This document shows positions 6,104-41,055 of a stretch of DNA of 56,369 nt, piece after piece. The stretch covers positions 1-56,369 of IMG/VR virus record IMGVR_UViG_3300031919_000004. One strand, written 5' to 3'. The notes under the pieces were generated by a model. The model ran no database searches and was not told the origin of the DNA. It saw nothing but the letters and a program-made list of their open reading frames with translations. Position 1 is the stretch's first letter, and every line of letters begins with the position of its first letter. This DNA comes from a virus (taxonomy: Duplodnaviria; Caudoviricetes). The translations under genes and the position numbers were made by a program.

Positions 6104-6143
6104 AGGGACAATCTTGTCCTCTGTATAGGACAGATTTGTCCTC
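6104..6143. repeat. two GGACA-N4-TGTCC palindromes, 22 bp apart (candidate initiator-binding iterons)
   Basis: GGACAATCTTGTCC 6106-6119 and GGACAGATTTGTCC 6128-6141 next to an AT-rich tract. Confidence 0.55.
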
Positions 6144-6173: not shown

Positions 6174-6237
6174 GCTGGCAGGTTCAAGAAAAAATTTTCA
6201 AAAAACTTGCCATTTCTTGTTGACCATGTTTTTATTA
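6174..6237 (+). repeat. 64-bp direct repeat, copy 1
   Basis: 62/64 identical to 7154-7217. Confidence 0.95.
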
Positions 6238-6255
6238 CATGGTAATATATAATCA
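6220..6255 (+). promoter_or_regulatory. class I (early, host sigma-A type) promoter
   Basis: TTGACC-N17-TAATAT with extended TG; shared motif TGGTAATATATAATCAA. Confidence 0.8.
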
Positions 6256-6283
6256 ACAAGAACGAAACGGGAGGCGGTACATA

Positions 6284-7153: not shown

Positions 7154-7217
7154 GCTGGCAGGTTCAAGAAAAAATTCTCAAAAAACTTGCCATTTCTTGT
7201 TGACTATGTTTTTATTA
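7154..7217 (+). repeat. 64-bp direct repeat, copy 2 (retains -35; adjacent -10 degenerate)
   Basis: 62/64 identical to 6174-6237, offset 980 bp. Confidence 0.95.
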
Positions 7218-7308
7218 TAGGGAATTATAGGCAAATCACACCGTGCATTTGCTTGCCCATGTGGGTTCTGACGAGGGTTAAAGAGAGATAAAAAGAGAGA
7301 ACTAAAAT

Positions 7309-17660: not shown

Positions 17661-17689
17661 GAGGTAGTGACAAACAGGAGGCCGGGAGT

Positions 17690-17721
17690 GTTTAATTTCC
17701 CGGCTATTCTTGTTGTATATA
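17690..17721 (+). promoter_or_regulatory. class II promoter (overlaps hairpin 17681-17705)
   Basis: GTTTAA-N18(..TTGT)-TGTATATA. Confidence 0.55.
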
Positions 17722-24409: not shown

Positions 24410-24428
24410 TCTTTTTTACTAATTTTTG

Positions 24429-24462
24429 TTGACTGGCATTTTATTATATGGTAATATATAAA
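24429..24462 (+). promoter_or_regulatory. class I promoter
   Basis: TTGACT-N17-TAATAT, TGGTAATATATAA. Confidence 0.8.
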
Positions 24463-24496
24463 CGTGAGGAGGAAAAAAATTAAGGAGGCAGATAAA

Positions 24497-24799
24497 ATGA
24501 CTAAAGAACAAATGCAGGTAGCACTTCAACAATGGATGGCAATTAATCCGAAAGCACCGAGGGGGCATAAGCAAGCGAACTTAGCAGACAACGGCAGGTT
24601 AATTATCAAGTATTATAAAACGGATAAAAAGACTTTTGACGTAATGGGGACTCAATTCATTATCGAATTAGACGAAGGACAAGACCTTTACAATGTGACA
24701 GTAGAAAAATATAGAAATTGTGATATAATAGCCAGAAAGAAGGTAAGCGGGTTATTCTTCGATATGTTAGACACAAAAACATTAACTTACAACCTATAA
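24497..24799 (+). CDS. hypothetical early protein
   Basis: SD AAGGAGG, 100 aa. Confidence 0.65.
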   Translation: MTKEQMQVALQQWMAINPKAPRGHKQANLADNGRLIIKYYKTDKKTFDVMGTQFIIELDEGQDLYNVTVEKYRNCDIIARKKVSGLFFDMLDTKTLTYNL

Positions 24800-24852
24800 G
24801 TAAAAAGCCGGGGGCTCCGGCTCCCGGTCAAATAAAAAAGGAGGCGGTAAGA

Positions 24853-25278: not shown

Positions 25279-25292
25279 GGGAGGCGTTACGA

Positions 25293-25709: not shown

Positions 25710-25718
25710 TTTACGGGG

Positions 25719-25755
25719 TTGACCATATTAATATTGTTTGGTAATATATAATCAA
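25719..25755 (+). promoter_or_regulatory. class I promoter
   Basis: TTGACC-N17-TAATAT, TGGTAATATATAATCAA. Confidence 0.8.
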
Positions 25756-26597: not shown

Positions 26598-26629
26598 TAA
26601 GATACAAAATAAAGCGAAGGGGGAATATT

Positions 26630-27013
26630 ATGAGGACAGTAGAGAGAAAGAAAAAATTTGGCTCAAAGCATGTTTTAATTATCCTTGCAGTATTTTTCAT
26701 AATGGCAATAGCAGGGGTAGGAGCGGGAACGGATGACGGGACGAAGCAGGACACAAACAGGGCATATCCATCTGAAGCGGCGATAGCGGCAGAGGAGTTT
26801 GTTAAAGACATACTTAAAGCACCCGGAACGGCAGAGTTTAACTCTTATGACCCGGACAAAGTAACAGAGATTGAGAAGAATAGGTTTAAAGTAACGGGAT
26901 GGGTTGATGCCGAAAATAGTTTTGGAGCAAAGATAAGGAGTAGGTATTTAGCTGTTGTGAGGTATGAGCCGACTGACGGTAAATGGTGTTTAGAAGAAAT
27001 TAGCATAAACTAA
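26630..27013 (+). CDS. membrane-anchored/exported protein
   Basis: Basic N-term plus TM/signal segment; LKAPGTAEF...WVDAENSFGAKIR. Confidence 0.75.
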   Translation: MRTVERKKKFGSKHVLIILAVFFIMAIAGVGAGTDDGTKQDTNRAYPSEAAIAAEEFVKDILKAPGTAEFNSYDPDKVTEIEKNRFKVTGWVDAENSFGAKIRSRYLAVVRYEPTDGKWCLEEISIN

Positions 27014-27044
27014 AAAAGCGGACTGAAAAGTCCGTTATTTTTTT
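27013..27044. terminator. bidirectional terminator
   Basis: A6-G-CGGACT-GAAA-AGTCCG-TTA-T7; U-tract on both strands. Confidence 0.75.
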
Positions 27045-27230
27045 GTCCCTTGTCAAGAGCATTTAATACTCATCCCTCCAGAAATAATAATTGACAGGGG
27101 ACTTGATATTTAATTTTAATATGTAGTTAGCCGGGGTGGGAGGCGTTTCTACCCCGGCTTTTATATTGTGGAGGCGTAAGAGGTGGAGGGAGGTGCTTGG
27201 AGGATACCACCGGTAAGTGGAACCCACCCT
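27013..27230 (-). ncRNA. candidate sRNA carrying five CCUCC anti-SD motifs
   Basis: Class I promoter on - strand at 27265-27237; no convincing ORF; hairpins at 27130-27159 and 27045-27102; ends at the bidirectional terminator. Confidence 0.5.
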
Positions 27231-27236
27231 GTAATT

Positions 27237-27265
27237 ATATTACCATAAGTCCTAAAGAAATGCAA
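27237..27265 (-). promoter_or_regulatory. class I promoter (minus strand)
   Basis: Reverse complement reads TTGCAT-N17(..TATGG)-TAATAT. Confidence 0.7.
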
Positions 27266-27274
27266 CCCATTTAA

Positions 27275-27303
27275 TTGAAAAAGCCTAAAAAATTTGTTAT
27301 AAT
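27275..27303 (+). promoter_or_regulatory. sigma-A promoter divergent from the candidate sRNA
   Basis: TTGAAA-N17-TATAAT with extended TG. Confidence 0.75.
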
Positions 27304-27404
27304 ATAAATACCCCGGTAAGGTCAAGGGCAACTATATAACCCCTATGTTGTCCTTGTTTCTATTTAGTCTAATATAATTTATTATAGGTATTTATATAGT
27401 ATAT

Positions 27405-27429
27405 ATTTAAGGGACAGATTTGTCCTCTG
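27405..27429. repeat. GGACA-N4-TGTCC palindrome, third copy
   Basis: TTTAAGGGACAGATTTGTCCTCTG matches 6100-6143; preceded by ~50 bp of AT-rich sequence. Confidence 0.6.
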
Positions 27430-27456
27430 GAGAAACAATTCTGACAATTTAACCAA

Positions 27457-27488
27457 ACTTCATATTCCAAGTCCTTTTGTAGTATATA
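27457..27488 (+). promoter_or_regulatory. class II promoter
   Basis: ACTTCA-N18(..TTGT)-AGTATATA. Confidence 0.7.
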
Positions 27489-27518
27489 TTTTAAAGGATT
27501 ATTTAGGGAGGGTACTGC

Positions 27519-27941
27519 ATGAGAAAACATTCAAACAAGCAGGAAAAGAGGGTAAGTAAATTTGTAGGAGGGAGGAAGAAAGCGAACAGCGGGGCGACTC
27601 CGTTTGACCCCGGTGACGTTGGGCTTGATGATGCCTTGATTGAGTGCAAAACCAAGGCGAAGCCGAGCAAGAGCATAACGCTAAAGGAGGAGTTTTTTAG
27701 AAAGATAAGGGAGGAGGCAACCTTAAAGGGTAAGCCTTTTGCCTTTGTTACATTTAGCTTTGACAATATAACGGACTATTACAGCATGGACGCTCACCAA
27801 TGGAAGGCATTATACCAAGCCTACCGGACGTTGGGGCGGATTATTGCCGAGGCGTTGGACGGGGAAATAAATGATATGGTGGAGGATGACGAGTTGACAT
27901 TACTCCTGAAGCGAATTATTAGAGAGGAGGGGGGCCATTGA
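27519..27941 (+). CDS. Hjc-like PD-(D/E)XK Holliday junction resolvase/endonuclease
   Basis: QEKRV...NSGAT...GDV...LIECKT. Confidence 0.75.
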   Translation: MRKHSNKQEKRVSKFVGGRKKANSGATPFDPGDVGLDDALIECKTKAKPSKSITLKEEFFRKIREEATLKGKPFAFVTFSFDNITDYYSMDAHQWKALYQAYRTLGRIIAEALDGEINDMVEDDELTLLLKRIIREEGGH

Positions 27942-28417
27942 GGTTTAGACTTGGAGGCATTAATGATTTTTCAACTATTGACGGTGACGGGATTGCTTTT
28001 GTGGTCTTTTTTCAAGGTTGCCGGAAGCGGTGTAAAGGGTGTCATAACCCAGAGCTACAGCCTTTTGATGGTGGCAGGGAAGTAGATACCGAGGAAATTA
28101 TCCACCTGATACGGGACTACGGAGAGGACTATGACTCCGTGGTGTTTCAAGGTGGGGAACCTTTGGAACAGGTTGAGCCTTTAAGGGAAATGATGCAAGC
28201 CGTAAGGCAAATGGGTTTGAGGGTTTGGCTATATACGGGATACGAATTACAAGAGGTTCCAGAGGAAGTTCTGCGGCTATGTGATGTGGTTGTTGCAGGG
28301 GAGTATAAGGAGGGGCTGGCTACGGGCAGGTTCCCGGCAAGTAGTAACCAAGCGGTAGTTCATGTGTATGTTGATAGAATAGGAGGGATTTATTTTGCTA
28401 ATTGGTCTGACGTTTGA
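27938..28417 (+). CDS. nrdG: anaerobic ribonucleotide reductase activase (radical SAM)
   Basis: FFQGCRKRCKGCHNPE, GGEPL, YTGY, SSNQ; adjacent to nrdD. Confidence 0.92.
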   Translation: MRFRLGGINDFSTIDGDGIAFVVFFQGCRKRCKGCHNPELQPFDGGREVDTEEIIHLIRDYGEDYDSVVFQGGEPLEQVEPLREMMQAVRQMGLRVWLYTGYELQEVPEEVLRLCDVVVAGEYKEGLATGRFPASSNQAVVHVYVDRIGGIYFANWSDV

Positions 28418-37864: not shown

Positions 37865-37951
37865 ATGTTCACAGAATTACAACAGGTATTACTACTAATA
37901 GCATTATACTGTCTTGTATTGGTGGCAATATTAGAGGCCGGGGGGAAATAA
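37865..37951 (+). CDS. 28-aa hydrophobic peptide
   Basis: SD GGGAGGT; MFTELQQVLLLIALYCLVLVAILEAGGK; terminator-like hairpin at its 3' end. Confidence 0.55.
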   Translation: MFTELQQVLLLIALYCLVLVAILEAGGK

Positions 37952-37982
37952 TCCTCCGGCTATTTTAATGGGAGAGGTGGCC

Positions 37983-40883: not shown

Positions 40884-41017
40884 AATTAAAATTAAAGAGG
40901 AATTTGGCAGTATTGATGAGGAGGACATTGAGGGATTAAAGCAAATATTTAGCATGTAAGGGAAGGAGAGGTTAAAACCTCTCCTAAAATTTTTCCTAAA
41001 AACTTTTGTAAGATGGG

Positions 41018-41055
41018 TTGACGGGATAATATATTATTTGGTAATATATAATCAA
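41018..41055 (+). promoter_or_regulatory. class I promoter
   Basis: TTGACG-N18-TAATAT, TGGTAATATATAATCAA. Confidence 0.8.

Follow-up and report, generated by a model that had tools for sequence, protein, structure and literature searches.

RNAIII of Staphylococcus aureus, a chromosomal transcript of 514 nt which also encodes a peptide, binds the Shine-Dalgarno (SD) regions of many mRNAs by means of several C-rich hairpin loops. The small RNAs (sRNAs) known from phages are mostly cis-antisense RNAs or stem from enterobacterial prophages; c4 RNA, which governs the immunity of a temperate phage, targets sites in its own operon and is included as a model in Rfam. The c4 RNA of phages P1 and P7 is described as an antisense RNA, its loops presumably pairing around a ribosome binding site (RBS) to block translation (PMC12197685), and the sRNA RoxS of Firmicutes has been described to contain four C-rich regions pairing with G-rich target sequences (PMC5419742). 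The motif CCUCC is reported as the core of the anti-SD sequence of 16S rRNA (PMC10783764). Here we analyze an intergenic gap of 505 nt in the genome of a tailed phage, IMG/VR record IMGVR_UViG_3300031919_000004. The window studied is this whole virus record, 56,369 bp with an estimated completeness of 85%, and the gap extends from the stop of a gene at position 27013 to a downstream resolvase-like gene. An original prediction, made from the nucleotide sequence, had placed in the gap a minus-strand sRNA with five CCUCC motifs that would repress the early genes of the phage by pairing with their RBSs.

We consider it possible, though short of probable, that the minus strand of the gap codes for a generic anti-SD sRNA transcribed from a diverged early promoter. 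The predicted non-coding RNA (27013-27230, ~215 nt) would be the only one of its kind read from the minus strand of a phage whose genes otherwise lie on the plus strand. It would start near 27230 at a diverged copy of the early-type promoters termed class I, back to back with a promoter at 27275, and would begin with a protective 5' hairpin, followed by a G-poor single-stranded stretch with three CCUCC motifs and by a GC hairpin exposing a fourth CCUCC in its 13-nt loop, and it would end at a two-way terminator, T1 (27017-27036). Its 5' end is assumed to lie 7 nt past the -10 box, its 3' end to coincide with the U-run of T1. Since CCUCC is the 16S anti-SD core, base pairing to GGAGG ribosome sites would put the RNA in competition with 30S subunits; this pairing would be generic, involving any strong GGAGG site of phage or host, and would not be tuned to the early regulon. 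What is inferred here is the activity of the promoter, termination of the RNA at T1, and its binding to ribosome sites. All open reading frames (ORFs) of at least 90 aa fitting a gene map are on the plus strand, and G exceeds C over the full length of the window. A C-rich transcript would therefore be an exception which needs its own promoter.

Such a promoter is suggested by a minus-strand relative of the class I promoters. The four class I promoters, all on the plus strand (6219-6252, 24428-24461, 25718-25751, and 41017-41051), consist of GTTGAC, a spacer of 15-16 nt and TGGTAATATATAA, and each scored 19/19 in a block scan. Of the exact 10-mer TGGTAATATA, the window has five copies, as compared to 0.14 expected; four are the class I promoters, while the fifth is located on the minus strand at 27245-27236. 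This class-I-like copy (27233-27266) reads GTTGCAT, with the -35 box TTGCAT (27265-27260), a 17-nt spacer, and TGG+TAATAT (27245-27237), and has a block score of 14/19 (4/6 and 10/13) at the spacing of class I. When the 60 nt from 27295 to 27236 were aligned to the 24428 promoter plus the A/T tract upstream of it, the score was 27, which none of 200 shuffles reached. The minus-strand site is taken as a genuine paralog of an early promoter, with predicted activity only. The original prediction had regarded it as the only minus-strand promoter; this applies to the class I type, but not to promoters in general, as a generic sigma-70 scan returned 15 minus-strand rows with at least 10/12 elsewhere in the window.

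The class I set resembles a family of cassettes made up of promoter and RBS, or the target of a shared regulator. Its members serve accessory genes, coding for an amidoligase, two cyclotransferase-like proteins, a DUF6011 protein, and a protein with a weak metallopeptidase-like match (DUF6782, below cut-off). A decayed class I copy is present at 7199-7232 (plus strand), past the amidoligase terminator; it is close to the 6219 copy and has lost the TGGTAATAT box.

The minus-strand copy and the 27275 promoter are divergent, and their -35 boxes (27265-27260 on the minus strand, 27275-27280 on the plus strand) are only 10 bp apart. This arrangement also suits a minus-strand element which acts locally, its CCUCC motifs being incidental. 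In a first form of this explanation, the minus-strand transcript and the polymerase producing it would act by interference or occlusion, stopping transcription that runs on from the early block and competing with the overlapping 27275 promoter; the predicted RNA is fully complementary to any plus-strand read-through past T1. In a second form, the inverted TGGTAATATA box, ~70 bp upstream of the 27275 promoter start, would bind a class I-recognizing factor and serve as a switch; the invariant 13-mer of class I promoters together with GTTGAC exceeds what a -10 box requires, hinting at a specific factor. However, no regulator was identified, the single-stranded state of the C-rich stretch is left unexplained, and so, in a form that involves no RNA, is the minus-specific 5' hairpin. 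We consider a local element of either form unlikely.

The predicted minus-strand RNA folds with -60.2 kcal/mol (z -2.86), and none of 200 shuffles was as stable; the same region as plus-strand RNA folds well, too (z = -2.77). Strand specificity was observed for the predicted 5' hairpin (27199-27228, minus strand), which begins 2 nt from the predicted 5' end and comprises 11 pairs, two of them being G-U pairs specific to the minus-strand RNA. Its folding energy is -14.0 kcal/mol on the minus strand versus -7.7 kcal/mol on the plus strand, and comparison with 500 shuffles gave P=0.024 and P=0.39, respectively. Of 1523 37-nt windows of the genome, just 0.2% showed a minus-strand bias of at least 6 kcal/mol at -12 kcal/mol or lower. 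The hairpin is followed by a G-poor stretch with CCUCC at 27193, 27189, and 27174 (unpaired probability 0.73-0.83). For the five CCUCC motifs of the minus-strand RNA, unpaired probabilities are 0.70, 0.83, 0.73, 0.79, and 0.34 (whole RNA, 0.51); sRNAs of the C-rich-motif type have at least two unpaired C-rich motifs, and four of the five motifs considered here, at 0.70-0.83, are predicted to be accessible.

The GC hairpin T2 (27129-27159), detected by folding and, on the plus strand only, by the terminator scan, has a 9-bp stem which reads alike on both strands. As originally described, its arms are GCCGGGGT and ACCCCGGC, with GGGAGGCGTT within; on the minus strand, the 13-nt loop presents CGCCUCCC (unpaired probability 0.70), and an inverted repeat and T1 then end the RNA. 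The inverted repeat (27045-27102, both strands), retrieved by an inverted-repeat search, has 12-nt arms which are 92% complementary and separated by 34 nt, and folds with -18.2 kcal/mol on the plus and -19.6 kcal/mol on the minus strand. T1, the terminator of the upstream gene 26630-27013, has folding energies of -11.9 kcal/mol (plus) and -8.0 kcal/mol (minus). A GC-rich hairpin plus a T-run, as typical of intrinsic terminators, is present on both strands of T1 (terminator scan: T7 on plus, T6 on minus) and on the plus strand only of T2, in agreement with the bidirectional terminator postulated for the far end of the RNA. Taken together, a minus-strand RNA of ~215 nt with four accessible CCUCC motifs is a coherent prediction. 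No other explanation connects the minus-strand promoter copy with the strand-specific 5' hairpin behind it, the run of accessible CCUCC motifs, and the terminator; each of these links is modest.

The loop of the inverted repeat harbors the sole CCCTCC on the plus strand of the gap. The sequence CCCTCCAGAAATAAT (27074-27088) is complementary in 13/15 positions to the RBS of the resolvase-like gene (27498-27512), 410 nt downstream; by a rough, uncomputed estimate, this complementarity is not clearly beyond chance.

The five CCUCC motifs correspond to GGAGG on the plus strand at 27139, 27170, 27185, 27189, and 27199, a cluster of five within 65 nt (27139-27203), and a motif count confirmed each of the positions. 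On the plus strand, the window contains a total of 196 GGAGG versus 16 CCTCC, and the cluster is its sole 70-nt stretch with five, or even four, GGAGG. Random placement of 196 sites gave P(max>=5)=0.02; the cluster is moderately improbable by chance.

The GGAGG run might act in plus-strand RNA instead, as a series of SD-like sequences to which 30S subunits would stay bound at the 5' end created by processing of a read-through transcript, thereby protecting the downstream message. The principle is established by the polypurine or STAB-SD 5' stabilizers described for Bacillus mRNAs, including an mRNA of phage SP82 (PMC7509114, PMC2358910), and the SD cores, perfect on the plus strand, lie just 3' of a strong hairpin as a possible processing site. 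The transcript from the 24428 promoter would likewise open with an extra GAGGAGG (24464-24500, plus strand), ~17 nt before the actual ribosome site of the first gene, which resembles a 5' SD-type stabilizer. However, a single SD would be enough, and in plus-strand RNA the motifs are predicted to be mostly paired (unpaired probability 0.31-0.54). Because the cluster is situated past two terminator-like hairpins and ahead of the promoter of the next genes, with no plus-strand promoter reported between 27160 and 27274 by the generic scan, a plus-strand RNA role would lack a transcript. Few plus-strand transcripts should reach the GGAGG run, which weakens both the SD-stabilizer and the small-ORF explanations; the former is very unlikely.

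For a very small plus-strand gene, the ORF listing offers 21 codons from GTG (27183-27248) or 25 codons from TTG (27197-27274), each preceded by GGAGG, at a distance of 8 nt for the GTG and of 7 nt for the TTG. Neither was adopted. Start codons 5-10 nt 3' of GGAGG are as frequent elsewhere (39% of the 191 other GGAGG, versus 2/5 in the cluster), the generic scan yielded no plus-strand promoter for them, and the two frames overlap one another. Besides, a contig from metagenome run X6 joins 27195 to 27228, skipping 27196-27227 and thereby breaking both frames as well as omitting the minus-strand hairpin, though the evidence is weak, coming from one contig with a side of 29 nt. A small plus-strand gene is highly improbable. 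On the minus strand, where no convincing ORF had been noted, the largest frame comprises 54 aa (27063-27227, GTG) and has no SD visible before its start; since no homolog was found among proteins of 29-95 aa, it was rejected as a gene.

The complementarity to early-gene RBSs was a central element of the original prediction. A sequence search located GGGAGGCGTT again at 25279 and 41066, GGGAGGCG at 6269, and GGAGGCGGTAAGAG at 24840, as had been claimed. Pairing of the RNA with 83 start regions was evaluated by RNAduplex energies, ignoring target accessibility. When 18-nt windows were used, the genes of class I units occupied ranks 4, 9, 10, 11, 23, 27, 51, and 62 of 83 (Mann-Whitney P=0.016), and the best three predicted targets were non-class-I sites, namely 11430 (HTH_36 protein), 22809, and 32478. 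Whole-RNA duplexes placed the class I unit genes at ranks 5, 13, 14, 31, 39, 63, 67, and 68 of 83. The expectation that class I genes should rank top was thus not borne out by either calculation.

Relatives of the phage, mostly 80-99% identical, were found as contigs of four metagenome runs (X3, X4, X6, and X8) matching across 24-31 kb of the window. The X4 contig covering 26981-27452 (472 nt) deviates by 23 letters (4.9%) and 4 gaps, and the X8 contig covering 27058-28377 has 82 other letters in 1320 nt (6.2%), as compared to 4.6-12.2% other letters in coding pieces of X4 and X8. Two sides of one T1 pair, A27022G and T27031C, co-change in X3 and X6; T27050C and T27051C, occurring in relatives, fall within the inverted repeat. 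X4 and X8 also contain contigs of greater depth which have nothing but the 40-nt terminator stretch 27004-27044 in common with the window and whose flanks beyond it are unrelated, indicating that the T1 sequence is also present in another genome of these samples.

Searches for further relatives were performed in several collections, in which the records closest to that of the window may be missing. No match was obtained by blastn of 26600-27950 against phage records. In IMG/VR, the resolvase-like protein, a 29-nt hairpin sequence, and the DNA polymerase retrieved no relative. The 127-aa protein encoded 5' of the gap led to six distant IMG/VR loci and NrdD to four, none similar in the gap; two of the four NrdD loci had ORFs listed, showing a compact gene order upstream. 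The class I promoter pattern occurred in 112 IMG/VR stretches, none related to the window. No relative for the region emerged from metagenome contigs searched with the resolvase-like protein and a 20-nt hairpin string, nor from genome contigs searched with two proteins of the window.

Several results weigh against a dedicated anti-SD RNA. In controls which kept the five GGAGG fixed and shuffled the remaining bases of 27129-27210, an exact match of at least 10 nt to some start region arose in 53% of 1000 cases, and 194 such controls gave P=0.31 for the best duplex and P=0.43 for the mean of the top five. Since flank-shuffled controls match equally well, the complementarity follows from the cores; it supports neither evolved targets nor descent from particular gene starts, and the ranking of class I targets was dropped as evidence of specificity. 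An RNA binding any GGAGG would also strike the phage's own genes. The promoter copy is one of eight sites reaching at least 14/19 in the block scan, while shuffled genomes give 5.7, and it is missing from the generic sigma-70 scan because its -35 box fits TTGACA in only 3/6 positions. If the overlapping pair GGAGGGAGG is counted once, the probability of the cluster becomes P(max>=4)=0.28. The X3 contig covering 26788-27117 differs at 71/330 positions; conservation therefore is uneven. T2, finally, reaches -24.0 kcal/mol on the plus strand versus -18.3 kcal/mol on the minus strand, a gap of 5.7 kcal/mol, and has a T-run on the plus strand only, where it grows to 14 pairs via three G-U pairs and is followed by TTTTATATT. 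It looks like a plus-strand element and may back up T1. With respect to the original proposal, the anatomy of the minus-strand unit, i.e., promoter copy, 5' hairpin, accessible CCUCC motifs, and terminator, is retained, whereas its aim at the class I regulon is not.

Sister hairpins of like stem at 17680, 24806, and 37936 are, like T2, more stable on the plus strand. Part of this bias is a matter of base composition, because the whole genome folds better on the plus strand, by 1.2 kcal/mol per 37 nt. The four hairpins (17680-17705, 24806-24828, 27129-27159, and 37936-37961) share the stem (A/G)GCCGGG...CCCGGCT, favor the plus strand by 3.7-6.9 kcal/mol, and mostly lack a good T-run. They may serve RNA stability or processing instead of termination.

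The main alternative, which we consider almost as likely, is that no dedicated RNA exists and that the gap is a boundary between early and middle blocks, with T1 and T2 as tandem plus-strand terminators, debris of early cassettes on both strands, and a chance run of GGAGG in G-rich DNA, as the single counting of GGAGGGAGG would allow. The debris would comprise an inverted promoter fragment, RBS-like GGAGGCG pieces, and a degenerate class-I-like promoter on the plus strand (27090-27126, TTGACA ... TAATAT), which scores 14/19 in the block scan only at gap 18; its spacer is 3 nt too long, a TG is lacking, and its alignment to the 41017 promoter gave P=0.055. The plus-strand order TTGACA ... TAATAT ... 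15 nt ... GGGAGGCGTT mirrors the layout of class I units. Ribosome sites with GGAGGCG are confined to class I units (4/8 unit genes versus 0/75 other genes, Fisher P=3.8e-5), and two of the five cluster motifs carry GGAGGCG (P=0.035). The existence of a second decayed class I copy at 7199 and the greater plus-strand stability of T2 and its three sister hairpins also agree with this explanation, as do the contigs of relatives which break or diverge within the gap (in X6, with loose ends at 27044, 27080, and 27282). However, the 10-mer box, the 60-nt promoter homology, and the minus-specific hairpin would then represent three coincidences in 100 nt, and the gap in X4 and X8 is diverged no more than the surrounding genes. 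The shuffling controls, moreover, equally weaken the idea that the GGAGG flanks descend from the starts of individual genes. If the gap is debris, it provides a caution, as in a genome with 196 GGAGG a 10-nt complementarity to RBSs comes free.

On the plus strand, the gap contains in this order T1, the 12-nt inverted repeat, T2 with the first of the five GGAGG inside it, the four further GGAGG (27170-27203), and the 27275 promoter. The latter (27275-27303; TTGAAA, 17 nt, TG-TATAAT) would serve the resolvase-like gene, nrdG, and nrdD, and ranks first among the sigma-70-type promoters between 25.5 and 29 kb (11/12 in the generic scan). An accessory block with two gamma-glutamyl cyclotransferase-like genes and genes for a DUF6011 protein and the 127-aa protein (function unassigned) is located 5' of the gap, and a DNA-metabolism block comprising genes for a PHROG "Holliday junction resolvase", NrdG, NrdD, and a dUTPase is located 3' of it. 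Judged by the DNA polymerase, the nearest cultured phages infect Clostridium, phiCTP1 being an example (42% identity), and a Firmicute is therefore the likely host. No lysogeny genes (repressor, integrase) were seen in family searches with 28 of the 91 kept plus-strand ORFs, and a tRNA/tmRNA search of the window detected none.

Two side observations concern the leader of the resolvase-like gene. An identical 16-nt palindrome, GGACAGATTTGTCCTC, is present on the plus strand at 6128-6143 and 27412-27427, with a variant at 6107-6123; one copy lies ~80 nt 5' of the 6219 promoter, the other inside the long leader of the resolvase-like gene, and the motif may function as operator or leader hairpin. 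In X6, the summed contig depth over 27276-27509 (promoter plus resolvase-like leader) is 521 versus ~80 on either side, and several alternative insertions occur near 27360-27382. This stretch is either a repeat or common to several co-occurring phages.

If the generic anti-SD sRNA is real, it would add to a known type of RNA a phage-borne form with five full anti-SD cores. In its most far-reaching version, which is distinctly unlikely, it would be a multivalent "Shine-Dalgarno sponge" of a lytic Clostridium-type phage, mimicking the 3' end of 16S rRNA fivefold and, expressed from an early-type promoter, accumulating and competing with 30S subunits for strong GGAGG sites in host and early phage mRNAs. 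If so, translation would be re-allocated globally instead of gene by gene, and a virulent Firmicute phage throttling initiation by an rRNA-mimicking RNA would represent a new device for host takeover and timing. The roles in immunity, as a timer, or in a carrier state, which had been suggested originally, are purely speculative.

Literature searches for phage sRNAs of an anti-SD or C-rich kind brought up reviews and unrelated studies, and the terms "C-rich" and "Gram-positive" do not occur in a 2025 review (PMC12197685). Rfam yielded no match for the whole window at the gathering score; for 26900-27600 at E<=10, nine weak matches to unrelated families far under their cut-offs were obtained, RsaE not being among them. 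The candidate sRNA thus matches no RNA family, neither RsaE/RoxS nor the P1 c4 type, and the sites complementary to it are dispersed over 6-41 kb.

With regard to STAB-SD elements, the locus shares SD-like sequences without a productive ORF and a Firmicute setting, but known stabilizers are sense-strand elements at the 5' end of transcripts, whereas here no plus-strand 5' end is predicted and five motifs are present. In common with P1/P7 c4, the candidate would be a phage RNA pairing with RBSs; it differs in its dispersed putative targets, in the lack of lysogeny genes among the 28 of 91 proteins searched, and in the lack of an Rfam match. Unlike RNAIII, it is ~215 nt in length and phage-borne, and shows no homology to that RNA. 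As to function, its closest counterparts are the Firmicute sRNAs with several C-rich regions. Like RoxS/RsaE, the RNA predicted here would be a stand-alone sRNA with several accessible C-rich motifs, a probable Firmicute host, and no need for Hfq-type features; unlike RoxS/RsaE, it would be phage-borne, has no Rfam match in sequence or structure and no specific predicted targets, and carries five full CCUCC cores in place of shorter C-runs.

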